From a candidate division Kazan bacterium RIFCSPHIGHO2_01_FULL_44_14 (GTDB lineage Bacteria; Patescibacteriota; Kazan-3B-28), in NCBI GenBank assembly GCA_001771185.1, contig METB01000001.1:375200-439199 (forward strand): a stretch of DNA of 64,000 nucleotides. The letters are read 5' to 3'. The notes below the pieces were generated by a model. That model did no database searches, was not told the origin of the DNA, and saw only the letters and a program-made list of their open reading frames with translations. Below, in pieces: positions 20,070-56,473 of this stretch. A program made the translations under genes and the position numbers. Numbering within the stretch: position 1 is the first letter of the stretch; every line of letters begins with the position of its first letter.

Positions 20070-20537
20070 CTAGGCCGGTTTGACTACTACTCGCCGGCTA
20101 GGGCCAATCCCAGTGCTCTCGCTCATAACTCCCGCTTCATTGACTAGCGCCAGATGAATTAGCCGGCGTTCAAAAGATGACATAGGCGGAAGATACACTG
20201 CCGTCCCAGTGGCTTTGACCTGACTCGCTGCGTCGCGAGCGATTTGTATCAGCCGCTCACGTTGCTGTTGATGAAATCCGCCAATATTCAAAGATAAACT
20301 TACCGTTTCGATTGGGAAATCACGCCGGACCATTAACCGGAGTAGGTGTTGTAACGCCAACAATGGGTCGGGCGAGGGCGAGATAAAAATTTCATCTCGA
20401 TCGGTTTTCATTTCAACAATTAACACTCCGTCTTCAGTGGCTACAGTAATTTCTGGGACGAGATCAAACGGGGCACATAATTCCCGCAACCGGTCCTGAA
20501 TTTTTTCCTCAATTGGGGTTAGTTTATTGGTCGCCAT
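20070..20537 (-). CDS. jag: Jag/KhpB RNA-binding protein (KH + R3H)
   Basis: C-terminal R3H motif and the conserved jag-yidC-yidD-rnpA-rpmH order. Start set at MATNKL to avoid overlap with yidC. Confidence 0.7.
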   Translation of the reverse strand: MATNKLTPIEEKIQDRLRELCAPFDLVPEITVATEDGVLIVEMKTDRDEIFISPSPDPLLALQHLLRLMVRRDFPIETVSLSLNIGGFHQQQRERLIQIARDAASQVKATGTAVYLPPMSSFERRLIHLALVNEAGVMSESTGIGPSRRVVVKPA

Positions 20538-21324
20538 GATGGGTGATAGTAGCCACGGCTTTTTCTTCGTGGCCAAATGACTTATAAATAATAACTTGCT
20601 GGATCGCCATAACAATCGTAGTGGTCGCCCAGTATAATCCTAAAGCAGAGGGGAGGGTCAAAGCAATCACCAGAGTCATGACCGGGAAAATATATAGCAT
20701 GGCTTGGTTGGTGATGTTTTGTTGCCCGGTTGCCTTGGTGGTCTTGGCAGTATATCGGATGGTTACCTGGCTCTGAACCAACTGGGCTACTCCGGCCAAT
20801 ATGGCTAAGTATATATTACGGGAGGTTAAATCTACCATGAGGGCCGGGATGTGGGTAAATTGAAGGAAAACCGTGTGCAGTTCCACTGGGGGATGCGGGA
20901 ACCAACCATAAAGATGGACCAAGCTGGCGGTGTTTAAACCAGCCCAGAATACTCGGTACAGCGCCAACAAAATCGGCAATTGAATAATCAGCGGCAGACA
21001 GCTGCCGAAGAGATTGATTTTGTGTTCTTTGTAAATTTTCATAATCTCTTCGGACTGTTTCTTTTGGTCGTCCTTGTAGTCGGCTTTGATTTTTTCAATA
21101 TACGGTTGGACCTTCTGAATGTCGTGCTGGGACTTCAAACTGTTCCGATATGAGGGTTGTAAAATCAATCGGATAAGAACCGTCAGAGCAATGATGGCCA
21201 ACCCGAGGTCTTGGCCTGGGATATAAACATAGAACAACACCAGAATATTCAAAAGCGGAACATACAAAAGCTTCCCAATCCAGCCGTTCCACATTGCCTC
21301 GCTAATTTGCAGTTTGTTATTCAT
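20524..21324 (-). CDS. yidC: Membrane protein insertase YidC (short form)
   Basis: Five TM helices and a conserved C-terminal half. Position between jag and yidD fits. Confidence 0.8.
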   Translation of the reverse strand: MNNKLQISEAMWNGWIGKLLYVPLLNILVLFYVYIPGQDLGLAIIALTVLIRLILQPSYRNSLKSQHDIQKVQPYIEKIKADYKDDQKKQSEEIMKIYKEHKINLFGSCLPLIIQLPILLALYRVFWAGLNTASLVHLYGWFPHPPVELHTVFLQFTHIPALMVDLTSRNIYLAILAGVAQLVQSQVTIRYTAKTTKATGQQNITNQAMLYIFPVMTLVIALTLPSALGLYWATTTIVMAIQQVIIYKSFGHEEKAVATITHHGDQ

Positions 21325-21447
21325 CCCGTTAGAAATAGCGCCCCAGCGTTTTTGCCCTGGCGTTAGCGATATAAATGTAATTTTATAATAACCATCTGTC
21401 TAGTTTGCTTCTGTTCGTCCCGGCAGGTGATTGTTAACGGGATTCAT
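21325..21447. repeat. IR-bounded ~120-bp mini-element (MITE-like): CCCGTTAGAAAT ... (A/T)TT(G/C)TTAACGGG
   Basis: Terminal inverted repeats. Homologous at both ends to the element at 22151..22269 and to the termini of the GIY-YIG element at 37205..37481. Abuts the yidC start codon. Confidence 0.6.
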
Positions 21448-21451
21448 TTTG

Positions 21452-21700
21452 TTAATTGGTTTGTTTATTTAAAACTAGATCAATGCCGGGAGCCGCCCAC
21501 GGATGGCACCGCGAAACCCTAGCCATCCCCAAAAACACCCCGCGGATTACTCCATGCTGTTCGATTGATTGCTTAACATATTCGCTACAGGTTGGCTGAA
21601 GTCGACAAACCCCGGTTGGATGCCACAGTCCCGGCCAACCCTGGTGGGGGACAAGCGTGTTTTGATACAGCGTGATTGCCTTGATCAATAAAGTTTTCAT
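21452..21700 (-). CDS. yidD: Membrane protein insertion efficiency factor YidD
   Basis: CRLQPTCSEY motif and small size. Confidence 0.8.
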   Translation of the reverse strand: MKTLLIKAITLYQNTLVPHQGWPGLWHPTGVCRLQPTCSEYVKQSIEQHGVIRGVFLGMARVSRCHPWAAPGIDLVLNKQTN

Positions 21701-21999
21701 TTGATTTGATTCAGAATGCTGCCCAGTTCCGACTTAATCTGCTGGAAAGATAGGTCGAGGATTGGCTTACGAGCGATAATAATTACCCCGGTGTTAGCCG
21801 ACAGATTTTTCTGGAGAATCACCCTGATCCGACGGCGAATTTTGTTCCTGGCTGCTGCTCGCTTATCCACCTTTTGCCCAGCCACAATCCGAGGCCGGGG
21901 AGCTGGAGTTTGCTTCATATAATACACCGTAAAAGCAGGGCGGTAGATGCGTCTGCCTCGGCGCATCACTTCATCCAACCGATCGGCATCTGTTTTCAT
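21697..21999 (-). CDS. rnpA: RNase P protein component
   Basis: Basic ~100-aa protein (KVDKRAAARNKIRRRIR) located immediately downstream of rpmH. Start set at MKTDAD. Confidence 0.75.
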   Translation of the reverse strand: MKTDADRLDEVMRRGRRIYRPAFTVYYMKQTPAPRPRIVAGQKVDKRAAARNKIRRRIRVILQKNLSANTGVIIIARKPILDLSFQQIKSELGSILNQIK

Positions 22000-22015
22000 G
22001 ATAAACCCAGCGCCG

Positions 22016-22150
22016 TTAGGCGCTGATCCGTTTGCGTCCCTTGGCCCGCCGACGCTGCAACACGGCCCGTCCGTCCTTGGTTGCCATCCGGGCACGAAAG
22101 CCATGGACCCTGGCCCGCTTTATTTTTTTGGGCTGGTAAGTTCTTTTCAT
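22016..22150 (-). CDS. rpmH: 50S ribosomal protein L34
   Basis: Hand translation gives [44 protein letters not shown]. At 44 aa it is below the ORF-track cutoff. Confidence 0.9.
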
Positions 22151-22269
22151 CCCGTTAGAAATAGGAAACCTAGCGTTTCCGTTTCTGGCTTAAAATTATC
22201 CTCGTATATACTTCCTCGTTTATTCTCCCTAATCCTTGTCGACTGTCCCGATAGGTGATTTCTAACGGG
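22151..22269. repeat. IR-bounded ~120-bp mini-element: CCCGTTAGAAAT ... ATTTCTAACGGG
   Basis: Perfect 12-bp terminal IR. Abuts the rpmH start codon. Confidence 0.6.
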
Positions 22270-22280
22270 ATTCATTTGAT

Positions 22281-22545
22281 TTACCTACCTAGTATAGGCA
22301 GATTTATCGGTTCAGGTCAACGAAAGTAGATGAAAGTTCGCTCCATTGTACAAATGTGGATAACTCTGATAAATTGAAGTGTGCCCCGTAGAGAAATTTT
22401 GAAAATGCTGACGCATTGTTTATTGCTCTGAGAGGATTAAAATATTGTTACGGAACACAGTTATCCCCAACGGCTGACGGTGGGGATAACCCACTCAAAA
22501 TTCTTCTAACGGGGTGTGCGACAGGGGAAATTATTGGGGAAAATT
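22281..22545. promoter_or_regulatory. Probable oriC / dnaA promoter region
   Basis: Intergenic region between rpmH and dnaA. One perfect DnaA box (TGTGGATAA) and two near-consensus boxes (TTATCCCCA, TGGGGATAA). Confidence 0.55.
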
Positions 22546-30661: not shown

Positions 30662-32848
30662 CTAGGCAGGTTTGGTTTCGCCCCAGTTTACACCAGCTTC
30701 GGCATCGACATGGATGGGGACATCGAGCTGATAAACATTTTCCATTTTGTCCTTTACGAGTTTGGCGACCTTTTTGATGTCTTTGGTCGGGACTTCCAGC
30801 ACTAGTTCGTCGTGGACTTGGAGAAGCATTCGAGAACCTGGACTTGCTTTCGGCAGGGCTTTGGCGAGTTCAATCATGGCGACTTTCAGTAAGTCAGCGG
30901 CGGTGCCTTGGACGGGCATATTGATAGCGGCGCGGATGGAAGCGTTGCGGACGGCGGGGACTTGGGATTTAATTTCTGGGATGTAGCGACGACGGCCAAA
31001 CAAAGTTTCAACATAGCCATGCTGTTTAGCGAAGGCGGCGGTGTCGTCCATATATTGTTTGATTTCCGGATGAAGTTCGAAGTATTTATGAATATAGTTG
31101 GTGGCCTGGTGGATGGTCATATTAGTTCGAGCGGCCAGGCCGTAAGGGGAGACGCCGTAGATGATGCCGAAGTTAATCACCTTGGCATTTCGGCGCATGT
31201 CTTTGGTGACATCTTTAATTTTGACGCCGTTGACTTCAGCGGCGACGGTAGTGTGGATGTCCTCACCTTTATTGAAAGTCCGAATCATTCGCTTGTCGTG
31301 AGCGAGGGAGGCAATAACCCGCAGTTCGATTTGAGAATAATCAGCAGAGATTAACCGGAAACTCTTGGGGGCAATAAAGGCCTTGCGGATTTCGGCGCCC
31401 AAGTCAGAACGGATGGGAATGTTTTGAAGGTTGGGGTCTTTGGATGAAAGCCGTCCAGTGGAAGTGTCTTGGGCGTAAGTGGTGTGGACGCGGTTGTTTT
31501 TGTCGACTAGTTTAGGCAGGGTTTCGAGGTAGGTGTTCTTGAGTTTGGTGAGCTGACGATATTCTAAAATATGTTTGATAACAGGATGAGCGCGGTAGAT
31601 TTTTTCAAGTTCCGATACCCCGGTGGAATAGCCGGTCTTGCCAGTCAGTCGACGGCCAGGAGTTTTGGCGATATCTAAAGTTGGGAGTCCAAGGTCTTTG
31701 AATAAAAAAGTTGCCAGTTGAGCAGGGGAACTGATGTTAAATGGCTGGTCGGCGTATTTGTGGATATTCTTCTCGAGTTTTTCAATGCGAATGGAGATTT
31801 GGTCGTTTAGTTTTTTGAGCAGTTTAATGTCCAGCAAAATACCCGCTCGTTCCATTTTGCGGAGGATGGGGTCAAGTTGTTGGTCGAGGTCTTTCACGGT
31901 TTTTTTCTGGGGCCCTTTAGACCGACGGGCCTTATCAAAAAAAGATGCTTGTTTCCCAGCCGGTGGGGTTGTGAGGGTCCCGTTGGGAATTTTTTCATAG
32001 AGGGTCTTGAAGCCCATCCGCCGGAAGAATTCGGCAACTCGGAATTTATCGAAAGCGATGGCCTCGGCTTTGGCTAAATCAAGCTTGATAGGGATGGCGG
32101 TATGAATAGTGGCCAACCCCTGACTTTTGATGGCGTCCGGTTTACTCTTTTTTAATTTATCGGCGATGGTGGGAGAAATCTTCTCCAAGTTTTCATAGAT
32201 GGTTTCGATAGTCCCAAATTCTTGTAGAAGTTTGAGGGCAGTGACTTCACCAATGCCAGCCACCCCGGGGATGTTGTCAGAGGGGTCACCGCGGAGTCCT
32301 TTAAAATCGATAACTTGGTCGGGGCGGATGCCTTTGGTTTTTAAAACTTCTTCGGGGGTGTAGATGACGATATCGGAAAAACCTTTGCGCGGGGCATATA
32401 CAAAAATATGGTCGTTTACTAGTTGGAGGGCGTCCATATCACCGGTGGCAATGTAGGTATCGAGGGTGGCCGGGGCTTGCTTGGCCAATGTTCCAATAAT
32501 GTCATCCGCTTCAAAACCGTCTTTCAAAAAGACCGGGACATTGAAACTTTCGAGCAAGGCCTGAACTTCGGGGATTTGGTCGTAGAGTTCCTGGGGAGCT
32601 TTAATGCGAGTGGCCTTGTACTCAACATATTCTTTGTGGCGGAAAGTCGGGGCATTGGTATCAAAAGCCACTGCGATATAGTCGGGCTTGAGGCGGGTGT
32701 AAATGTTGATTAACATCACGGCAAAACCATAAATTGCCGTGGTGGGAGCGCCTGATGGGGAGGTGAGATTGGCACGTGAAAAAGCGTGGAAGGCACGGTG
32801 GACCAGGGCGTTGCCATCAATAAGGACTAGTTTTTTTCTAATAGTCAT
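30662..32848 (-). CDS. polA: DNA polymerase I (5'-3' exonuclease plus polymerase domains; no room for a 3'-5' exonuclease domain)
   Basis: N-terminal LVLIDGNALVHRAFHAF 5'-nuclease motif. C-terminal motif A (DYSQIELR), motif B (RRNAKVINFGIIYG) and motif C (QVHDEL). Only 728 aa. Confidence 0.9.
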   Translation of the reverse strand: MTIRKKLVLIDGNALVHRAFHAFSRANLTSPSGAPTTAIYGFAVMLINIYTRLKPDYIAVAFDTNAPTFRHKEYVEYKATRIKAPQELYDQIPEVQALLESFNVPVFLKDGFEADDIIGTLAKQAPATLDTYIATGDMDALQLVNDHIFVYAPRKGFSDIVIYTPEEVLKTKGIRPDQVIDFKGLRGDPSDNIPGVAGIGEVTALKLLQEFGTIETIYENLEKISPTIADKLKKSKPDAIKSQGLATIHTAIPIKLDLAKAEAIAFDKFRVAEFFRRMGFKTLYEKIPNGTLTTPPAGKQASFFDKARRSKGPQKKTVKDLDQQLDPILRKMERAGILLDIKLLKKLNDQISIRIEKLEKNIHKYADQPFNISSPAQLATFLFKDLGLPTLDIAKTPGRRLTGKTGYSTGVSELEKIYRAHPVIKHILEYRQLTKLKNTYLETLPKLVDKNNRVHTTYAQDTSTGRLSSKDPNLQNIPIRSDLGAEIRKAFIAPKSFRLISADYSQIELRVIASLAHDKRMIRTFNKGEDIHTTVAAEVNGVKIKDVTKDMRRNAKVINFGIIYGVSPYGLAARTNMTIHQATNYIHKYFELHPEIKQYMDDTAAFAKQHGYVETLFGRRRYIPEIKSQVPAVRNASIRAAINMPVQGTAADLLKVAMIELAKALPKASPGSRMLLQVHDELVLEVPTKDIKKVAKLVKDKMENVYQLDVPIHVDAEAGVNWGETKPA

Positions 32849-33004: not shown

Positions 33005-33460
33005 TCAACCAGAAGCCGAAAAGGTGTTGGTGGGAGGAGGGAGAGTAAGTGTACCAAGAGAAGGATAAAACCGATCGGCGAAAAGATTAGATTTTCGGTT
33101 CTCGATGTTGTAGAACCGATCGAGCACCGCAGTGAACAGGTTGAGGGTGAAGTACTTTTGGAAAGCCGGTAGGACTGAAAGGATTTCTGGCGGTGGGTCC
33201 TGAAGCGGGTTGGCAGTGATCTCGCCGTCGAACCACATGAAGGCAACGACGATGGCAATTTGTGGAATGGTATTGCATTCCCGAGATTGGCGGACGAGGT
33301 CGATTAATTCGTCGTGCCCGCAAGCACTTCCAAACTCGTCCAGCAGTAAAAACTCGGTTCCCGTTAGAACCCGGCGAACTCGCTGGTCGTTGGCGACTTT
33401 TATGAAATCGATTTGGGCAGAGGACAAACATTTTTTCCAAACCGATTCTTTTTTGCCCAT
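33005..33460 (-). CDS. Hypothetical protein
   Basis: Strong Shine-Dalgarno (AGGAGG, 8 nt upstream) and a terminator downstream. No motif recognised. Confidence 0.45.
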   Translation of the reverse strand: MGKKESVWKKCLSSAQIDFIKVANDQRVRRVLTGTEFLLLDEFGSACGHDELIDLVRQSRECNTIPQIAIVVAFMWFDGEITANPLQDPPPEILSVLPAFQKYFTLNLFTAVLDRFYNIENRKSNLFADRFYPSLGTLTLPPPTNTFSASG

Positions 33461-35983: not shown

Positions 35984-36079
35984 TGTCATCCTGAGCGGAA
36001 ACGAAGGATCTAGTTCTGCTGTACAGCAGAACGCTATCGCTAGATTCTTCATCCCGGCAGGCCGGGATTCAGAATGACG
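35984..36079. repeat. MITE-like ~96-bp element, inverted copy of 34524..34630
   Basis: TGTCATCCTGAGCG terminus. Internal ...ctagttctgctgtacagcagaacgctatcgctagattcttca... is the reverse complement of element A. Confidence 0.6.
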
Positions 36080-36088
36080 GGAAAATTA

Positions 36089-37138
36089 TCATCGGAAGCG
36101 ACTGATGAACGAATAGATTCGATAAAGAGAGCGATTCAGGGGCAACTCGAGCGTACCTATATATTCTACTGCTTGTCCGCCAAAGCCCTGCTTGAATCGG
36201 GTGATGCCAGCCCAAGGATGGTCGGGGTCGGGATGAATCCCACCGAGGTCATAAAATCGCATCCCTCGGCGCTTGGCCATGGTCATTCCAAACCAATGTA
36301 GCAGGTAAGGGGCCATCAGATTTTTATAGGTATCGCTGGAGGCCCCATGGACATAGGTGGTAGTATCGCCGAAGGTGACCAAAAAGATACTACCGAGAGG
36401 TGTATCGTTAATAATTTTTTCGTCGACATCAACCAACTTCTCGGCAAACAGTAGATTCCCCATCCCGGCTTGGTGGAGGGTGTGGATTTGAGTGATGTAG
36501 TAATTGGTTGAGTGGGGAATAAAGCCCTGGCGGCGACCGGTCTGGGTGGCTAGTCGAGCGAATTCTTTAATGTCTTCTTCACCAGTGCCGGACTTGATTA
36601 AAACTTCGTGTTTAGTCGCTACGTTAATGTTGTAGCGGGTTTTGGGTTTCATCTGTTGACGCAAAACTTCATCGCTAGTGTCTAATTTTACCAGCTGAAT
36701 GTGGCGGGGCTGGATGTTTTTATAAGGATTCGGGATAAAATTATTTGAGCGGTAAAAGGACAAGGTTAGAGCATCGTGAGCGAAAGCGTTGGGATCGATT
36801 CGAAACAGAATGGTTCGGTTGGTATGGCCCAACCGATTAATTTCTTGCAGTAAGAGCTTAGCGCTCTCTTGTTGGAGTTGAGCTGAAAGCCGTTTATTTA
36901 CGATGCTACCCCGCGGGGAATAGAGGATATACCAACCAAATCCGAGTGATAGTCGGATTACTAGCAGCTGATTGACGATTTCCCCGTCGTGTTCAACGGC
37001 TAACCGCCAGATAGGGTTGCCGAGCTTGAGCTGGAATTCACCCCAGGCCCAACTTTGCAGAAAATGCCGATCGGGTCGGGTGAGTAGGGCAGAGTCCCAA
37101 ATCTCTTGAGCCAGGGCTGACGGGGGAAGTAGTTTCAT
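36089..37138 (-). CDS. FemAB-family peptidoglycan interpeptide bridge aminoacyltransferase
   Basis: N-terminal ...FLQSWAWGEFQ... is a hallmark of the FemAB family. About 350 aa. Confidence 0.7.
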   Translation of the reverse strand: MKLLPPSALAQEIWDSALLTRPDRHFLQSWAWGEFQLKLGNPIWRLAVEHDGEIVNQLLVIRLSLGFGWYILYSPRGSIVNKRLSAQLQQESAKLLLQEINRLGHTNRTILFRIDPNAFAHDALTLSFYRSNNFIPNPYKNIQPRHIQLVKLDTSDEVLRQQMKPKTRYNINVATKHEVLIKSGTGEEDIKEFARLATQTGRRQGFIPHSTNYYITQIHTLHQAGMGNLLFAEKLVDVDEKIINDTPLGSIFLVTFGDTTTYVHGASSDTYKNLMAPYLLHWFGMTMAKRRGMRFYDLGGIHPDPDHPWAGITRFKQGFGGQAVEYIGTLELPLNRSLYRIYSFISRFR

Positions 37139-37204
37139 ACATGCTTATTATAGCAGAAAAGTGGCTTCTGGACTGCTATTCTTATGGTATAATTGGGACG
37201 CGGT

Positions 37205-37481
37205 CCCGTTAGAGACCAGATAGTATGTACTATGTCTATATATCGCGTAGTAGTAAGTCGGGCCGGTTGTATACTGGGTTTACTTCCAATCTACGGAAAC
37301 GCCCGATAGTGCATAGTAGTAATATGGGTGGTTACACTTCTGGCCGTGGGCCTTATCGTTTGGTTTACTACGAGGCGTGTAACAACATTGAGGACGCTTT
37401 GGCGCGTGAGTTGTATTTAAAGTCAGGTATGGGTAAGAGATATATAAAAAATCGTATTCGGCGTTTCCTGTCTCTAACGGG
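37205..37481 (+). mobile_element. GIY-YIG element bounded by perfect 12-bp IRs CCCGTTAGAGAC / GTCTCTAACGGG
   Basis: The IRs flank the GIY-YIG ORF. The same IR core bounds the non-coding mini-elements at 21325, 22151, 46451 and 47234. Confidence 0.55.
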
Positions 37482-37485
37482 ATGA
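37225..37485 (+). CDS. GIY-YIG nuclease family protein (COG2827/UPF0213-like)
   Basis: MYYVYISRSSKSGRLYTGFTSNLRKR matches the GIY-YIG core (YVY...G.LY.G.T.NL..R). Two paralogs lie elsewhere in the window. Confidence 0.7.
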   Translation: MYYVYISRSSKSGRLYTGFTSNLRKRPIVHSSNMGGYTSGRGPYRLVYYEACNNIEDALARELYLKSGMGKRYIKNRIRRFLSLTG

Positions 37486-38519
37486 AGATTTTAGCAATTG
37501 AGACATCCTGTGACGATACTGGGGTGGCCATTGTAGAAAATGGTCATCGGGTTTTAGTGAACCTAGTCGCTTCTCAAGAGAAATTACATGCGACTTTTGG
37601 CGGGGTGGTGCCCGAGGTAGCTTCGAGAGAGCACCTTAAGGCGGTTTTCCCGTTGATTGATTTGGCGTTGCAAAAAGCCAAATCAACTCCAAAGAAGATT
37701 GATGCGATTGCCGTGACAGTAGGCCCCGGGCTGTTGGGGTCGTTATTGGTAGGAGTAAATGCCGCCAAAGTTTTAGGTTATTTGTGGGGGAAACCGGTCG
37801 TTCCAGTCAATCATCTAATGGGACATATTTATGCCGGGTTTATTAATCGGCCCAAAGTGGGATTACCGGTATTGGCTTTGGTGGTTAGTGGCGGTCATAG
37901 TGAATTGGTGCTGATAAAGAAACAGGGTGAGTATAAATATTTGGGCGGGACGCGAGACGACGCGGCGGGAGAAGCGTTTGATAAAGTTGCGCGATTATTA
38001 GGGTTAGGATATCCGGGAGGACCAGCAGTAGCCGCAGAGGCGGCTAAATTACAAATTACAAATGACAAATTACAAATGTTGAGGAGAAGAGGGATTGTTT
38101 TGCCGAGGCCGATGTTGGGAGAAGATAATTTGGATTTTAGTTTTTCAGGATTAAAGACGGCAGTAGCCATCGTAGTAGCGAATTCCAAATTACATCCGCC
38201 AGCTGGCGGACCAAATGACAACCAGGTTAGAGCGGAGATCGCTCACGAATTCCAGTCGGCGGTAGTGGATGTCTTGGTGGGCAAATTATTCCGAGCGGTC
38301 ATTCAATATCAGCCCAAAACAATTGTGTTGGGAGGCGGGGTAGTGGCTAATCGCGAACTACGCAAACGAGTGGAGGAGTTGGCCGGAAAACATAATTGGC
38401 GGTTAGCAATTCCGGACTTTCAATACTGTACGGATAATGCGGCAATGGTCGGAGCGGCGGCATGGCATATTGGGATAAGTAAAAATTCGCAGTGGTACAA
38501 TGTTAATGTGATAAGTTAG
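37482..38519 (+). CDS. tsaD: tRNA N6-adenosine threonylcarbamoyltransferase TsaD (Kae1/YgjD)
   Basis: MKILAIETSCDDTGVAIV N-terminus and HxxGH metal site (HLMGHIYAG). Confidence 0.9.
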   Translation: MKILAIETSCDDTGVAIVENGHRVLVNLVASQEKLHATFGGVVPEVASREHLKAVFPLIDLALQKAKSTPKKIDAIAVTVGPGLLGSLLVGVNAAKVLGYLWGKPVVPVNHLMGHIYAGFINRPKVGLPVLALVVSGGHSELVLIKKQGEYKYLGGTRDDAAGEAFDKVARLLGLGYPGGPAVAAEAAKLQITNDKLQMLRRRGIVLPRPMLGEDNLDFSFSGLKTAVAIVVANSKLHPPAGGPNDNQVRAEIAHEFQSAVVDVLVGKLFRAVIQYQPKTIVLGGGVVANRELRKRVEELAGKHNWRLAIPDFQYCTDNAAMVGAAAWHIGISKNSQWYNVNVIS

Positions 38520-38556
38520 GTGGGCATAGGATATATTTTCTAAATTCTTCTACGGG

Positions 38557-40704: not shown

Positions 40705-40749
40705 GATTAGGATTTCGGTTTGTTTTTATATTGTTCCAAGGTGTCTTTT

Positions 40750-41112
40750 TTGTCATCCCGAGCGCAGTCGAGGGATCTGGCTATGAGTGCGAGACAATAC
40801 TATGTTTATATCTTGGCGAACCATAGTCGGGTTTTATATATTGGTGTAACCAATAATTTGACGCGACGGGTATACGAGCATAATCATGATTTAGTCCCGG
40901 GTTTTACACGCAAGTATAAAATTCATCGGTTGGTTTATCAGGAACATTGTGACGACGTTGAAAACGCTATTGCCAGAGAAAAACAGTTGAAAAATTGGAG
41001 ACGAGACAAGAAAGTAGCTTTAATTAACCGAATCAACCCAGAGTGGGAAGATTTGGTAGGTGTAGTAACGGGCTAGATCCCTCGATTCGCTCCGCTCACT
41101 CGGGATGACAAA
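40750..41112 (+). mobile_element. GIY-YIG element bounded by ~29-bp IRs TTGTCATCCCGAGCG..CGAGGGATCT
   Basis: The left IR (40750..40778) and right IR (41075..41112) are reverse complements. The termini match the MITE family at 34524 and 35984. Confidence 0.55.
40783..41076 (+). CDS. GIY-YIG nuclease family protein
   Basis: MSARQYYVYILANHSRVLYIGVTNNLTRRVYEHN matches the GIY-YIG core. Confidence 0.7.
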   Translation: MSARQYYVYILANHSRVLYIGVTNNLTRRVYEHNHDLVPGFTRKYKIHRLVYQEHCDDVENAIAREKQLKNWRRDKKVALINRINPEWEDLVGVVTG

Positions 41113-44659: not shown

Positions 44660-46450
44660 TTACTCCCCGGTTAGATTACGCAGTTCGGCTAATTGGGCAG
44701 GGTCAGAAGTGACGATTTTATCTTCCACATAACTAGCCACAACTTTAATGGCGGCATGGTTAGTGCCGGCAAAGAAAAGTCCTTCACCAACTTCGGACTC
44801 GAGCAGTAGGAACTTTTCACCTTGGGTCAAATTGAAGGTCTCGGCGACGACATCAATCGAAGCCGGGGACTGGCGGAAGAGCAGTTGAAGAGACGAGTTG
44901 GCTACCACTGCCTTACCATATTTGGAGCCCAAAAAGTCCTCTACATCCTGGGTAATAGTGGTGAGCCCGAGATAATATTTGCGAGCTCGTTTGGCGATAC
45001 TATATAAGAATTTAGCCGAGTCCTCGTATTGCATTAAAATCCAGGCCTCGTCGATGATGAGCAGACGCTTTTTAATATTGAAGCGGATTTTATTCCAAAT
45101 ATAATTCAACACCACATACATAGCGATGGGGCGAAGGGCGTCCTCCAAATCCCGAATATTGAAGACAACTAAACCGGTGTCTAAATCAAAATTGGTTGGT
45201 TTGTTGAAGATGCCAGCGAAAGTCCCGCGGGTATATTTGCTAAGTCGTTGAGACAAACTTTCGGCTCCCTGCATGTTGTCCAAAACATTTTGCAAGTCCT
45301 CCATCGTCGGCATTGGGTTTTTGTGGGTGGCGGTGTCGTTGGTGATATCTTTGAGGGCGTAGGTTTCATGTAAGGCCTTGTCCATCAAAGCATCTTCTTC
45401 GGGAGTCAAAGTCCCGACCAGCAAATTCATCAGGCCAAGCAAAGTGACGATGGCGGAGCGAAGGACTTTTTCGCCGTCAGCATCGACGCCCAGGTCGGGC
45501 AGGTCAAATGGATTAATCCGTTTGTCGCTGTTGAGCGAGATAGAAATAAATGAACCGCCAATGGCATTGGCCAGGGTCTCGTATTCATTCTCTGGATCGA
45601 TGACAATCGTGTCAGTTCCGAACATCGCACTGCGCAAAACCTCGAGTTTGACCGCATAGGACTTACCTCCACCGGACTTGGCGAAGACAGCCATGTTGGC
45701 ATTTTCTAAATCGAACCGGTCAAATAAAATCAGCGAATTGTTGTGCCGGTTGATACCATACAGAACACCTTTGCCGGTAGTCAGGTCAACCGAAGTGAAG
45801 GGGAAAGTGGTAGCAAGTGAGGAACTGGTCATGTTGCGGACAATATCTAACTCATCTAAGCCCAGTGGCAAAGAAGAATTAAAGCCCTGCTCCATTTGAA
45901 GTAAAGCATGCTTGGTGTAAACTAATTGGCCGCCCAGCGTGGTTTCAATGTGTTGGGTAATCGATTCCAACTCTTCGGGGGTCTTGGCGTAGATGGTGAA
46001 ATACAAACCATAATGGAAGAACCGTTCCATCCCGCGTTGCAGACGGTCACGGAGTTCCTCGGCATCTTGGTAGGCGACTTCCAGTTCGGGGTCGCGAACA
46101 GCGCCCTTTTCTTGGTTGATTCGAAGCGAGGACTCCATTTCGGCCACTTTCCGGCGGAGCGTATTCATAATGGCAGTACTGTCAATCGGGTAGATGTGCA
46201 TCGAAATGTCCAAATCAACATCATAGTTAATGACTGGGTTGAGCCAGTTGGTTTCAATATATTGAGGGTAGGTGAGCACAAACAGGGTTCGGACAAACCG
46301 GCCATTGAGCTCAATGGAATCATTTTTGATTTCCATAGAAGCCGGGGCAACCAAATCACGAATTGAAACTAGGCCAGCTTCAAATTGTTCGACGGCTTTG
46401 CGGGCGTCAGCTTCTTTTTGGGGCTTAGGTTTTCTTTTGAATAGAGCCAT
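44660..46450 (-). CDS. VirB4/TrbE-family type IV secretion ATPase
   Basis: P-loop FAKSGGGKSYAVK and the VirB4-typical Walker B LLIIDEAW. About 600 aa, comparable to the Gram-positive/CPR VirB4 class. Confidence 0.7.
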   Translation of the reverse strand: MALFKRKPKPQKEADARKAVEQFEAGLVSIRDLVAPASMEIKNDSIELNGRFVRTLFVLTYPQYIETNWLNPVINYDVDLDISMHIYPIDSTAIMNTLRRKVAEMESSLRINQEKGAVRDPELEVAYQDAEELRDRLQRGMERFFHYGLYFTIYAKTPEELESITQHIETTLGGQLVYTKHALLQMEQGFNSSLPLGLDELDIVRNMTSSSLATTFPFTSVDLTTGKGVLYGINRHNNSLILFDRFDLENANMAVFAKSGGGKSYAVKLEVLRSAMFGTDTIVIDPENEYETLANAIGGSFISISLNSDKRINPFDLPDLGVDADGEKVLRSAIVTLLGLMNLLVGTLTPEEDALMDKALHETYALKDITNDTATHKNPMPTMEDLQNVLDNMQGAESLSQRLSKYTRGTFAGIFNKPTNFDLDTGLVVFNIRDLEDALRPIAMYVVLNYIWNKIRFNIKKRLLIIDEAWILMQYEDSAKFLYSIAKRARKYYLGLTTITQDVEDFLGSKYGKAVVANSSLQLLFRQSPASIDVVAETFNLTQGEKFLLLESEVGEGLFFAGTNHAAIKVVASYVEDKIVTSDPAQLAELRNLTGE

Positions 46451-46532
46451 CCCGTTAAAAATTTTTACTAATGTATGTGTATTGCATCTTGGTGGTCTGT
46501 TGTTTGTGCCCGTTTTCTAGATTTTTAACGGG
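46451..46532 (-). promoter_or_regulatory. Conserved ~85-nt leader element with 12-bp IR (CCCGTTAAAAAT / ATTTTTAACGGG), copy 1
   Basis: About 85% identical to 47234..47320. Ends ...TAACGGG directly at the ATG of the VirB4 gene. Confidence 0.5.
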
Positions 46533-46540
46533 ACAGGTAG

Positions 46541-47233: not shown

Positions 47234-47320
47234 CTCGTTAAAATTTTTTGTCAGTGTAAGTGTATTGCATCTTGGTGGTTTGTTAGTTTTGCCCGTTTTC
47301 TTGATTCTCTTGGGACAGGT
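47234..47320 (-). promoter_or_regulatory. Conserved ~85-nt leader element, copy 2 (IR degenerated)
   Basis: Shares ...gtgtattgcatcttggtgg.ttgtt.gtt.tgcccgttttct... with copy 1. Ends TAACGAG directly at the ATG. Confidence 0.5.
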
Positions 47321-47322
47321 AA

Positions 47323-54464: not shown

Positions 54465-54554
54465 GGAGGCGTGGCCGAGTGGTTTATGGCGCTAGTCTCG
54501 AAAACTGGTTGGGGAGTAATCCCCTCGGAGGTTCAAATCCTCCCGCCTCCGCCA
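54465..54554 (+). tRNA. tRNA-Ser (anticodon CGA), type II with long variable arm, CCA encoded
   Basis: Acceptor stem GGAGGCG/CGCCTCC. Anticodon stem CTAGT/ACTGG with loop CTCGAAA. T-arm GGTTCAAATCC. Confidence 0.85.
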
Positions 54555-54609
54555 TACTTCGCCAAGGCTTCGAGTGGCCTGTGGCCAGATATGTAATAAT
54601 GGGGTAGTT

Positions 54610-55095
54610 ATGGCAGACCCAAAGCAAGAAGTTGGCACTCTCCGATATGAATGGACTGCGCTTGAATTCCCTCGGGTGGAGCGGACTAGAGTTTGGTATT
54701 TGGTGGCTGGGTTAGTTGGGCTTGGATTGTTGGCGTATACCATATATACCAGGCAATGGGCGGGAACAGCTGTCGTGCTAATGATTGGGGTGGTAGTTTA
54801 TCTGATGGGGAGAGTTGTCCCAAGAACTTTTGTTCATCGGTTAACAAGCCGTGGGGTAGAAGTGGGAGATAAATTTTATCCGTACACAGAGTTGAGAGCG
54901 TTTTGGGTGATTAATACCTCTAACAGTCGGACATTAAATCTGATATCAGCTAAGAAATTTAGTTTGCTTTTAACTTTACAATTAGAAGGGGCTGATGTAG
55001 AAAAGGTAAGAGAAGTTTTGTTGGAGTTTTTGCCAGAAGAGCCCGGGCGAGGCGAAGATGTGATTGACCGGGTTGGCAGGTTCTTTCGGTTTTAA
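54610..55095 (+). CDS. Hypothetical membrane protein (two TM helices, bPH/DUF304-like)
   Basis: Start set at MADPKQ, preceded by a GGGG Shine-Dalgarno-like stretch. Two adjacent TM helices. Confidence 0.4.
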   Translation: MADPKQEVGTLRYEWTALEFPRVERTRVWYLVAGLVGLGLLAYTIYTRQWAGTAVVLMIGVVVYLMGRVVPRTFVHRLTSRGVEVGDKFYPYTELRAFWVINTSNSRTLNLISAKKFSLLLTLQLEGADVEKVREVLLEFLPEEPGRGEDVIDRVGRFFRF

Positions 55096-55174
55096 TTATT
55101 ATGCGCCCGCCTGCAACGCTATGCGTAGCATTGCGGGCTGGCCCGTAGCTCTGTGGGCTGGCAGGGGGTTAGGA

Positions 55175-55426
55175 GTGTATTACATCTATGTTTTATTTTC
55201 AAGTAAAGATACGCACTTCTATGTTGGTTATACGAAGGATTTAAGGAAACGGGTAGAAGTGCACAACGTCGATGCTGTGGACGCCACAAAGTCACGCCGA
55301 CCGTTAAAACTGGTGTATTATGAGGCATGCTTGTCGGAGAACGCGGCGTTGGTGCGAGAGAAGCAACTTAAAACAGGGTTTGGTAGAGCGTATTTAAAAA
55401 CAAGGATTAACATTATGCGCCCGTAG
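55175..55426 (+). CDS. GIY-YIG nuclease family protein (probable GTG start)
   Basis: (V)YYIYVLFSSKDTHFYVGYTKDLRKRVEVHN matches the GIY-YIG core. The track ORF extends upstream to 55064 but the domain starts here. Stop codon overlaps the tRNA-Arg 5' end. Confidence 0.5.
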   Translation: MYYIYVLFSSKDTHFYVGYTKDLRKRVEVHNVDAVDATKSRRPLKLVYYEACLSENAALVREKQLKTGFGRAYLKTRINIMRP

Positions 55427-55493
55427 CTCAGGGGATTAGAGCGCGTAGCTACGGACTACGAGGTCGGGGGTTCGAATCCCTCCGGGCGTACCA
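55417..55493 (+). tRNA. tRNA-Arg (anticodon ACG)
   Basis: GCGCCCGTAGCTCAGGGGATTAGAGCG... cloverleaf. Anticodon stem CGTAG/CTACG with loop CTACGGA. T-arm GGTTCGAATCC. CCA encoded. Confidence 0.85.
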
Positions 55494-55521
55494 CGTCAAT
55501 TTGGTGGATTGAAAATAAAAT

Positions 55522-55646
55522 GGGGCCCCCGAAATGTTCTAGTTCTGACGGATGGAGGAACGAGGATTTTGGGGAGAGGAAGAATGACGAGGCCTAAAAG
55601 CACCCCGGCAGGCCGGGATAGCGTGAAGCCGAGTCCATTCTGACGA
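55522..55646 (+). ncRNA. Conserved ~125-nt structured element directly upstream of tRNA-Ser(GCT), copy 1
   Basis: About 80% identical to 56247..56383. Contains a hairpin with compensatory substitutions (CCCCGGCaggGCCGGG here, CCCCGCCAT..ATGGCGGG in copy 2). Ends at the tRNA 5' end. Confidence 0.4.
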
Positions 55647-55736
55647 GGAGAGGTGGCTGAGTGGCCGAAAGCGACACACTGCTAACGTGTTATACCCGTA
55701 AGGGTATCGCGGGTTCGAATCCCGCCCTCTCCTCCA
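55647..55736 (+). tRNA. tRNA-Ser (anticodon GCT), type II
   Basis: Acceptor stem GGAGAGG/CCTCTCC. Anticodon loop CTGCTAA. Long variable arm. T-arm GGTTCGAATCC. CCA encoded. Confidence 0.8.
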
Positions 55737-55743
55737 GAATTTT

Positions 55744-56205
55744 ATGAAACCAGACCATCAGAAATTTTTGCAGGTGGCTATTACTGAAGCCCAAAAGGCC
55801 GGTGTCAAAAAAGAAGTGCCGATTGGTGCAGTGATTGTAGACGCAAATGGCAATATTATCGGGCGAGGCAGAAATCAGACCCACGCAAAGAAAGATGGGT
55901 TAGGACATGCAGAATTGGTAGCGTTACGGCAAGCCCAGAGAAAATTGGGTGATTGGCGGTTTCCCGGAGCGAAAATATATGTAACACTTGAGCCCTGTTT
56001 GATGTGCTTGGGGGCGATTGGGAATGCCAGGATTAAGGAAGTTTATTATGGGTTAGCCGACCCGTTGTTTGGGTCGATTGAGAGTAAACTAACAAATAAG
56101 CAGGTAAAGAAAATGTTCCCAAAGTTAGAATGTTTTAAACTTCCAGACGATGGGACGGTGGCTGGTCTAATGAAACAGTTTTTTCATGGCTTAAGAAAAC
56201 GGTAG
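55744..56205 (+). CDS. tadA: tRNA-specific adenosine deaminase
   Basis: HAELVAL...PCLMCLGAI motif (H-A-E plus PCxxC zinc site). About 150 aa. Confidence 0.85.
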   Translation: MKPDHQKFLQVAITEAQKAGVKKEVPIGAVIVDANGNIIGRGRNQTHAKKDGLGHAELVALRQAQRKLGDWRFPGAKIYVTLEPCLMCLGAIGNARIKEVYYGLADPLFGSIESKLTNKQVKKMFPKLECFKLPDDGTVAGLMKQFFHGLRKR

Positions 56206-56246
56206 GGTACAATAGAGGCGTTAGGCAGTTTAATATTTTTGATAAA

Positions 56247-56383
56247 CGGGGTCCCCGAAATGCTCTAGTCCCGACGAATGGAGGAACGAGGATTTTGGGG
56301 AGAGGAGAAATGACGAGACCCAAAAGCACCCCGCCATCTGTAAACAATGGCGGGATAGTGTAAAGTTGAGTCCATTTGGACGA
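56247..56383 (+). ncRNA. Conserved structured element upstream of tRNA-Ser(TGA), copy 2
   Basis: See copy 1. Same 5' block GGGGNCCCCGAAATG.TCTAGT.C.GACG.ATGGAGGAACGAGGATTTTGGGGAGAGGA and same 3' block GTCCATT.GGACGAGG. Confidence 0.4.
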
Positions 56384-56473
56384 GGAGGCGTGGCCGAGCG
56401 GTTTATGGCGCCAGTCTTGAAAACTGGTTGGGGAGCAATCCTCTCACAGGTTCGAATCCTGTCGCCTCCGCCA
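56384..56473 (+). tRNA. tRNA-Ser (anticodon TGA), type II, CCA encoded
   Basis: Acceptor stem GGAGGCG. Anticodon stem CCAGT/ACTGG with loop CTTGAAA. T-arm GGTTCGAATCC. Confidence 0.85.

Follow-up and report, generated by a model that had tools for sequence, protein, structure and literature searches.

Bacterial miniature inverted-repeat transposable elements (MITEs), such as the Correia elements of Neisseria, are the closest described counterparts of the elements treated here. Both have a length of 80-130 bp, terminal inverted repeats (IRs), target duplications and a pattern of presence or absence in related genomes. Both also stand beside gene starts, share the transcript of the host gene and are able to fold as a hairpin. 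Correia elements duplicate TA, and they are not known to have a cognate nuclease gene of the kind described below. In the present work, a 64,000-nt stretch of DNA (hereafter the window) from the candidate division Kazan bacterium RIFCSPHIGHO2_01_FULL_44_14 (contig METB01000001.1, positions 375,200 to 439,199) was analyzed, which holds five short copies or remnants of IR-bounded elements (82-129 bp, without a transposase gene) and one longer unit with the same ends, encoding a GIY-YIG nuclease. The short elements are named R at rpmH, Y at yidC, D near dnaA, V at virB4 and V' at a VirB4 paralog, and the coding unit is named G, at tsaD. With a probability of about 0.8, R, Y, D, V and V' are MITE-like nonautonomous derivatives of a start-codon-associated GIY-YIG element family found throughout the candidate phyla radiation (CPR/Patescibacteria). 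In contrast to the Correia elements, the putative autonomous partner is here a 277-bp unit with a GIY-YIG gene only, and the insertion is registered to the start codon, which it would duplicate and rebuild.

The REPIN-RAYT system is similar in that a small nuclease/transposase gene is flanked by inverted short repeats and gene-less hairpin derivatives are scattered. RAYTs are HUH/Y1 enzymes (IS200-like) and REPINs are extragenic without start-codon registration, whereas the enzyme here is a GIY-YIG and not a Y1 protein and the elements abut start codons; the likeness is organizational only. Rickettsia palindromic elements are also small palindromes tolerated at or in coding sequences, and one 78-bp mini-element of the present family stands in frame with its host gene. 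The Rickettsia elements have their insertion sites within genes and contribute residues to the translated protein, whereas the insertions described here are at the start codon and most copies are unfused to the host protein.

Free-standing GIY-YIG homing genes (T4 Seg, I-TevI) share the fold and are likewise the sole nuclease gene of a selfish intergenic insertion; possible co-conversion of the flanks and the decay of a copy at its fixed site are seen here as well. GIY-YIG homing enzymes have extra DNA-binding domains, long specific sites, no terminal IRs or duplications and one cognate locus (in part PMC2988022). On the contrary, the CPR family has proteins of 86 aa without an extra domain, has IRs and duplications, and occupies dozens of unrelated loci. 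Instead of one cognate site, unrelated host genes were found, and 95% identical paralogs of the same metagenome-assembled genome (MAG) lie in unrelated flanks. The stand-alone UPF0213/Slx1-like proteins (BH0048, EF2693 and E. coli YhbQ) belong to the same single-domain class, which is the minimal and probably ancestral form of the domain (PMC1564403). The CPR family differs from them by an invariant ...RFLSLTG end which doubles as the 3' repeat, and neither a mobile-element context nor IRs nor a start-codon association of the UPF0213/Slx1-like class was found in the literature searched. GIY-YIG open reading frames (ORFs) are described in non-intron insertions of CPR rRNA genes (PMC11270868), and GIY-YIG genes have been transferred horizontally from Patescibacteria (PMC12455944). 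A full-text literature search found no published account of an IR-bounded, start-codon-registered GIY-YIG element. We rate the enzyme class and the target logic as new; a mobile element with IRs and target duplications is of a known kind.

The repeat CCCGTTAGAAAT has exact matches at 21325 (+), 22151 (+) and 22258 (-), with ATTTCTAACGGG as its inverted partner arm, and partners with one or two mismatches at 21430 (-), 37205/37470 and 46451/46521. The search for perfect inverted arms gave 14 bp at 22149-22162 / 22258-22271 (R), 13 bp at 37204-37216 / 37470-37482 (G) and 13 bp at 46450-46462 / 46521-46533 (V). The motif TAACGRGATG occurs five times in the window against 0.30 expected, a count reached in none of 100 shuffles, and all five matches include the ATG of a gene, that is, of yidC, rpmH, tsaD, a VirB4-like gene and the VirB4 N-domain paralog. 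In Pfam, these host genes are YidC, L34, TsaD and a VirB4/TraG-like ATPase, the paralog being an unannotated 230-aa ORF. A first-pass annotation of the window had proposed that a terminal TAACG(G/A)G abuts the ATG of five genes and that the IRs of R and Y are common to a GIY-YIG gene and a type IV secretion leader, and on both points the counts and the shared ends of G and V agree with it. Its further claim, that the lack of a Shine-Dalgarno (SD) sequence sets the five genes apart, did not hold, as most genes of the window are without an obvious SD. A motif match at 33360 was dismissed as chance, being inside a gene with its own strong SD.

Element R (22151..22269, minus strand; 119 bp, CCCG...CGGG) is directly upstream of rpmH (L34; 22016..22150, minus strand; Pfam Ribosomal_L34, E = 8e-24), the start of which abuts it, and its 14-bp perfect IR takes in the AT of the rpmH ATG. 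The last 23 nt of R, GGTTTCCTATTTCTAACGGGATGA (GFLFLTG and stop), match the 3' coding end of the GIY-YIG family, CGTTTCCTATCTCTAACGGGATGA (RFLSLTG and stop), and many full-length copies begin as R and Y do, with ATGAATCCCGTTAGA... (MNPVR...) at the 5' end. The ancestral rpmH promoter TTGACC-18-TATACT (22291..22320, minus strand), the best promoter-like site of the region, is now displaced upstream of R. A 42-codon ORF runs through the element (22147..22275, minus strand), from the duplicated host start ATGAAT (22275-22270) to a TGA which overlaps the rpmH ATG as ATGA; it is intact in the related locus L006, and the independent 119-bp mini-element L043m has the same 42-codon run-through. (L-numbers denote fetched orthologous or family loci, with the suffix m for a mini-element locus.)

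Element Y (21325..21441, minus strand; 117 bp) is located between yidD and yidC (20524..21324, minus strand; Pfam 60KD_IMP, E = 1.4e-46), again abutting the start of the gene. Its 5' arm, CCCGTTAaCAAT, has 12 bp with two mismatches, and the ATGAAT upstream of it (21442..21447, minus strand) duplicates the first six bases of yidC (21324-21319). The position of Y had been recognized earlier, with the duplicated ATGAAT counted as part of an element of 21325..21447. The alignment of R and Y showed homologous elements with conserved ends and divergent interiors, as had been noticed before.

Element D (22385..22513, plus strand; 129 bp) was revealed by aligning the dnaA-proximal spacer with its counterparts in relatives. 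It lies upstream of dnaA, with the arms CCCGTAGAGAAATTTTG / CAAAATTCTTCTAACGGG forming an imperfect IR of about 17 bp. What had been listed as a sixth copy of the repeat, 30 nt upstream of dnaA, does exist, but as the 3' end of this complete mini-element.

Element V (46451..46532, minus strand; 82 bp) fills the space between the stop of the VirB4 paralog and the virB4 ATG, has a 13-bp perfect IR (TCCCGTTAAAAAT) and aligns with an approximately 80-bp class of mini-elements from metagenomes. Its decayed duplicate V' (47234..47322, minus strand) is upstream of the VirB4 N-domain paralog; the 3' end, TTTTAACGAG, still joins the ATG, but the 5' arm and with it the predicted fold are lost. The ends of the R/V type form an imperfect IR of about 22 nt with the inner sequences ACCTAKCG / CGMTAGGT.

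The full-length element G (37205..37481, plus strand; 277 bp) is bounded by a 13-bp perfect IR, TCCCGTTAGAGAC / GTCTCTAACGGGA. Its GIY-YIG ORF (37225..37485, plus strand; 86 aa) continues across the 3' arm to a TGA that overlaps the ATG of tsaD (37482..38519, plus strand; Pfam TsaD, E = 1.3e-86), which abuts the element.

The 86-aa ORF of G belongs to a family of at least 1339 clusters at E < 1e-5, many members having exactly 86 aa. One genome per species was scanned, and 80 of >580 confirmed loci were kept, which together with G make 81 loci from many CPR lineages. Nearly all share one layout, a unit of 272-280 bp (CCCG to CGGG) with arms of 12-17 bp that are perfect or nearly so (consensus YCCCGTTAGAG... 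/ ...CTCTAACGGGR, 13-bp IR) and an ORF which continues across the 3' arm to the end ...CTAACGGGATGA; where the unit stops exactly at a host start, this is its usual end. The C-terminus encoded by the 3' arm, ...KNRLKRFLSLTG (...RFLSLTG and stop), is near-invariant. The two arms covary: 13 positions (-1 to 11) are 95-100% Watson-Crick, and 6 show compensatory double changes. For instance, the outermost pair is T-A in 63 and C-G in 10 cases, and position 11 is C-G in 36, T-A in 36 and A-T in 4.

The association with start codons is evident in the whole family. Of the 81 full-length copies, 56 stop precisely where a long ORF begins, and a further 15 are no more than 25 nt away. The start is followed by A at its fourth base in 89%, against 42% in the background. 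The host genes include frr (ribosome recycling factor), secY, smc, a murG-like glycosyltransferase gene, topA, secA, ychF, mscL, pheT, pgk and tsaD. Two elements of the same MAG (L043 and L055) share 95% identity although their flanks are unrelated and their host genes differ, and another pair (L020/L045) is 89% identical; the element has therefore multiplied within genomes.

Mini-elements are also found outside the window. Eight from other CPR genomes (102-119 bp) have the same ends, with mini-elements of the same size beside full-length copies, and metagenomes hold about 12 further R-type copies of 77-81 or 115-120 bp before other genes. No interior is shared in an alignment of 13 mini-elements; only the ends are conserved. 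The ends of the mini-elements are those of G and of the 80 other full-length elements. With terminal IRs, target duplications with empty sites, small size without a transposase, ends shared with a coding partner and dispersed copies, all the features that define MITEs are present. Two proposals of the first-pass annotation are borne out by these data: that the mini-elements are nonautonomous derivatives of the GIY-YIG element, for which the shared ends, the 23-nt gene end in R, the common MNPVR start and the mini-elements beside full-length copies speak, and that the element is tied to start codons, in agreement with the empty sites below.

The homologs of its YidC place the window organism, the contig of which is from a groundwater metagenome, in CPR/Patescibacteria, with candidate division Kazan as the nearest named relative. 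Orthologous loci were taken at graded distances from it. Presence or absence in relatives, on which the earlier idea of an inserted element had been made to depend, was found at rpmH, yidC, upstream of dnaA, tsaD and leuS, all of which have empty sites; AAATCAAATGAAAAGA is an example of an empty-site sequence. The rpmH, yidC and tsaD sites are empty in relatives with 67-72% identical proteins. Y is present as a 127-bp yidD-yidC gap in L005-L007 (YidC 98% and 90% identical) and absent in L008 (YidC 72%) and L010 (68%), where yidD and yidC overlap or abut (TAATG / TAACATG). R is present in L005 and L006 and absent at the orthologous site of L008 and L010. The empty rpmH site of L008 reads ...TATACTGGTTAGGTACACGGTGGCC followed by ATGAAAAGG, with TATACT and the leader directly before the ATG. 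The window has its counterpart of this promoter and leader, CCTATACTAGGTAGGTAAATCAA followed by ATGAA, upstream of R. The D site is uninterrupted (AAATTGAAGTGTGCA) in L006, a 90% relative, and in L008. G is absent in L093 and L094, which have about 60 bp between femAB and tsaD and a TATAAT 8-9 nt before the ATG, and the promoter of this empty site precedes the 277-bp G in the window. Since relatives have empty sites, the units are insertions and not conserved leaders.

The leuS gene, downstream of tsaD, gives all three states of a site: L094 has no element there, L092 has a complete one and the window keeps a remnant. The remnant (38520..38556, plus strand; 37 bp) ends ...AAATTCTTCTACGGG and is followed by GTGGAT. 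The leuS start (38557) is GTG in the window and in L092 and ATG (ATGGAC) at the empty site of L094 (coordinate 2587), so that the G appears, from the sequence, to be the terminal base of the inserted element. In L092, a full GIY-YIG element of another subtype has the flanks GGA[TGGA]C...G[TGGA]TAAG (2326-2618).

Local peaks of identity are also seen between the window and its relatives. R is 94% identical between the window and L006, with the flanking genes at 71-82%, and sliding identity over 22128-22327 against L006/L007 is 92-98% over R and its promoter. Over 37103-37580 against L092, it is 93-97% over G and about 100 nt of each flank and 65-80% beyond, despite the fact that L092 (TsaD 80% identical) has at the same site a decaying copy of G (5' arm CCAG, start ATT, G18E and G70D). 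Y has no local identity peak. The peaks over G and R look like co-conversion or recent transfer, as in homing.

Some of these features would also agree with a GIY-YIG gene that is only a passenger or an allelic homing endonuclease, the mini-elements being moved by an unrelated, unseen transposase recognizing the same IRs. The identity peak extends about 100 nt into both flanks of G as in homing co-conversion, the L092 copy degenerates in place as in the life cycle of homing genes, and no GIY-YIG transposase is known to us or was found in the literature searched. We consider this explanation unlikely. In all 81 loci, the only ORF between the repeats of the 272-280-bp unit is GIY-YIG, a count to which no scan of the window ORFs for transposase domains was added. 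Moreover, copies are found before dozens of unrelated genes without shared flanks, which pure allelic homing cannot explain, and the gene and its ends evolve as one unit because the C-terminal codons are the 3' repeat, covarying with the 5' repeat.

The reading of the mini-elements as derivatives of the GIY-YIG element is further supported by the duplications of the target. D has a perfect direct repeat GTGTGC at 22379-22384 and 22514-22519. ATGAAT is on both sides of Y and of L056m, the flanks of R are ATGAAT / ATGAAA, those of L088m are [TGAA]C..G[TGAA], and at leuS of L092 TGGA is duplicated and ATG has become GTG. Most loci have ATGA(A/G)T as the left flank. Among the 29 cases in which it reads ATGA-N-T, the base N recurs in 26 as the fifth base of the right flank (permutation p = 0.006). 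The cleanest cases (D, L092-leuS, L088m and L056m) fit a 4-bp TGNN duplication, with the outermost pair of the element (T..A or C..G) giving the first base of the rebuilt start, and a 5-6-bp RTGNNN duplication would fit them equally. A 3' arm or its remnant (e.g., TAACGGGAT; L006 1660-1690) is found directly left of another 5' arm in L006-Y, L014, L048, L072, L084 and L091, and such tandem or nested insertions at one start codon would fit re-use of the regenerated target.

According to the mechanism that these flanks suggest, the element would insert at R/TGNN (R, a purine; the slash marks the insertion point) through a staggered cut of roughly 4 bp. The duplicated TGNN together with the last base of the element (A or G) would rebuild the ATG or GTG of the host, and the duplicated TGA would serve as the stop of the nuclease ORF, giving ATGA. 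The promoter and start region of the host, left upstream, could drive the ORF of the element, and the ATGA overlap would couple the translation of the host gene to it. With the start rebuilt, the ORF driven by the host promoter and the two coupled by ATGA, insertions at start codons would be nearly harmless and could survive in gene-dense genomes, with insertions elsewhere being purged. The GIY-YIG protein would be the probable mobilizing nuclease, acting on the IRs or on their hairpin, the repeat-only mini-elements would be moved in trans, and the spread between related strains may include homing-like co-conversion. For the specific combination of the GIY-YIG protein as mobilizer, a staggered cut at R/TGNN and survival by start-codon regeneration, the chances are nearly even, or slightly worse.

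The overlap ATGA is the standard geometry of termination-reinitiation coupling in bacterial operons. In 21 loci, the nuclease frame stays open back to an in-frame ATG upstream; in 11 of them, the ORF lacks a start of its own and begins MNPVRD..., like R and Y. A crude pattern for an SD-like motif ahead of the duplicated ATG matched only 3 of 49 loci. The suggestion of the first-pass annotation that the host has co-opted a translational or regulatory signal is only partly sustained: the full-length ORF does end as ATGA on the host ATG, but only some mini-elements keep an ORF that far.

The ORF through R also raises the question of a leader peptide, MNPVRNH...FLFLTG, encoded by R and Y and regulating rpmH and yidC in the manner of MifM, which regulates yidC2 in Bacillus. 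The 42-codon frame of R, from an ATG just behind the promoter to the ATGA overlap with rpmH and preserved in L006, would agree with this. However, the frame of Y is closed by a stop after 15 codons and an upstream ATG is missing from L006-Y, and with these two sequences a conserved leader peptide is largely refuted. The R sequences of the window and L006 differ by four nonsynonymous and three synonymous changes, without a sign of constraint at the protein level, the shared terminal residues are the repeats read in frame, and no Pfam match was obtained. Such a peptide is therefore regarded as highly improbable.

A function at the RNA level was considered as well. R and Y would in that case be conserved leaders, with a stem in the 5' untranslated region in which the 5' arm pairs with the 3' arm and the AUG, for sequestration of the start, as an RNase III site or in leaderless mRNAs. 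A long-range stem does dominate the predicted folds of R, Y and V (z about -2); it takes in the A or AU of the start, its arms covary, purines at position -2 could pair with the U of AUG as A-U or G.U, and the conservation of R against L006 exceeds that of the flanking genes as given above. Folded as single-stranded DNA, D has z = -5.45 and R z = -3.0. On the other side, the non-Watson-Crick positions of the arms show no excess of G.U (2 G.U vs 8 A.C), which speaks against selection on a sense-strand RNA stem. The Rfam scan of the window returned only four tRNAs and no RNA family for the mini-elements, the interiors of which are unrelated, with only the terminal stem covarying; a known RNA family or a conserved structured core was rejected on these grounds. 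Furthermore, the host genes of relatives with empty sites work without the element, V' has lost the stem and yet stands before an intact gene, and target duplications and same-genome paralogs at different genes need mobility of the DNA. We find an RNA function improbable as the explanation of the elements. A role of the repeats at the DNA level, as element ends, is better supported as the primary one because the repeat-only mini-elements are evidently mobile, and the repeats could have a secondary effect in RNA besides.

The protein of G matches Pfam GIY-YIG PF01541 with 49.6 bits (cutoff 22.6; E = 5e-13). The residues Y5, Y16, R24, E62 and N76 are invariant or nearly so in the family alignment and are all present in the window copy; their catalytic roles are assumed here by analogy with the spacing in I-TevI. 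Profile matches were obtained to UPF0213 proteins (1zg2, E = 7e-12) and SLX1. The AlphaFold2 model (predicted local distance difference test score, pLDDT, 85.7) has the beta-beta-alpha-beta-alpha topology of GIY-YIG with one C-terminal helix, and the best fold matches are UPF0213 1zg2, Slx1 (template modeling, TM, scores of 0.62-0.66) and I-TevI (TM 0.51). No NCBIfam model matches the 86-aa protein, and as it is the sole ORF, no known transposase class (DDE, HUH or Ser/Tyr recombinase) was found in the element. Slx1 is a structure-specific nuclease, which makes it plausible that the GIY-YIG protein acts on a hairpin or cruciform of the repeats. To go further and propose the 277-bp unit as an autonomous DNA transposon, with an 86-residue GIY-YIG nuclease as its sole protein and thus a new class of prokaryotic transposase, is tentative, with the odds somewhat against it.

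Several observations count against the start-codon element and its mechanism as set out above. The 86-aa protein has no extra DNA-binding domain recognizable in Pfam or in the AlphaFold2 model, and we know of no bacterial transposase that is a GIY-YIG protein. The duplication is not uniform: it is missing at G and V, and a class of 14 loci with ATGAT fits 3 bp only, so neither a uniform 6-bp nor a uniform 4-bp model fits all copies. A bare RTG is too short a target for the precision observed unless selection is strong. The identity peaks over R and G are explicable by constraint on the promoter and the 5' end of the gene instead of co-conversion. Finally, coupling is not general. Among the 12 upstream ORFs of mini-elements, R and the independent 119-bp mini-element run for 42 codons exactly to ATGA, one ends at the TAA of the arm and the 78-bp L108m forms a continuous open frame with the host gene, but seven, including Y, stop early. 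Obligatory translational coupling in the mini-elements is excluded by these seven; judging from the frames, coupling appears to be tolerated or useful there and not required.

The start-codon element would give function and a mobility context to the very large gene family annotated as "GIY-YIG nuclease family protein", and the wider UPF0213/YhbQ class may gain a role likewise. It shows the life of a selfish element in gene-dense, reduced genomes, where the rebuilt start would spare essential genes such as rpmH, yidC, tsaD, secY, secA and topA. The annotation of CPR genomes is shaped by such insertions through their start codons, the change of ATG to GTG (leuS), spurious small ORFs and apparent 5' leaders. 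As filled and empty sites differ between close relatives, the elements are sensitive markers at the strain level. For the engineering of genome tools, a nuclease this small, whose DNA end is defined and whose target is short, would also be of interest. If the transposon proposal is true, the 277-bp unit would be, to our knowledge, the smallest autonomous mobile DNA element; it would borrow its stop codon and the new start of the host from the 4 bp duplicated at R/TGNN and would be expressed from the initiation signals of the host, a near-neutral start-codon parasite that could have spread through the streamlined genomes of the entire CPR and occasionally beyond.

A second GIY-YIG gene is present in the window (unit 40749-41112, ORF 40783-41076, plus strand; 97 aa, Pfam E = 4e-15), the product of which is 43% identical to the G protein. 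It has compound repeats of about 34 nt, TTTGTCATCCCGAGCGCAGTCGAGGGATCTGGC / GCTAGATCCCTCGA...CTCGGGATGACAAA, ends ...GTAACGGGCTAG (VTG and stop), and is located after leuS and not at a start codon. This IR-bounded gene hints that UPF0213-type genes in general may be such mobile elements. Motifs related to its repeats, GTCATTCTGAAT and TTCAGAATGAC, occur at about 36075, at about 34520 and in L094 at 340-400.

Before a Mur-ligase-like gene (36053-36088, minus strand), CTGAAT is followed by CCCGGCCTGCCGGG and ATGAAG, which could be an extreme deletion remnant or footprint or an unrelated hairpin. It was not counted as an excision footprint, as its sequence overlaps repeats of another family, which the L094 site contains too. 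The leuS start of L093 (1110-1125) reads TAATTAAACCC followed by GTGGAC, a possible excision footprint. The resemblance of GTTAGAG / CTCTAAC to what we take to be the core sites of integron attC (GTTRRRY / RYYYAAC) was set aside, as orientation and context misfit.

Four elements, mutually 85-88% identical and with a C..G terminal pair, come from bins outside CPR (L058, L062, L067 and L078; Thermodesulfobacteriota, a delta proteobacterium and Syntrophaceae). No long ORF starts at their 3' end, and their placement could be due to horizontal transfer or mis-binning.

The GC-skew minimum is at about 20-22 kb of the window, where the gene order is dnaA / rpmH-rnpA-yidD-yidC, and this combination marks the region of the replication origin. 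A consensus DnaA box, TGTGGATAA, is at 22354-22362 in the dnaA-rpmH spacer, at the GC-skew minimum, and D is inserted beside it. D itself holds a 10-bp hairpin, GTTATCCCCA...TGGGGATAAC, consisting of two inverted DnaA-box-like sequences, so a mobile element has added such sites to the probable origin or dnaA promoter region.

V and V' each hold a 10-codon ORF (MQYTYISKNF and MQYTYTDKKF, respectively, followed by a stop), which terminates with the TAA in the 3' arm, 4 nt short of the host start codon. Together with their leaders, virB4 and the N-domain paralog look like a tandem duplication which followed the insertion. In several genes of the window, such as those starting at 32848, 37138 and 59955, a TATAAT precedes the ATG by 6-9 nt, and this, together with the few clear SDs, suggests that leaderless or very short-leader mRNAs are perhaps common in the organism. 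The four tRNA genes found by Rfam form a cluster at 54465-56470.

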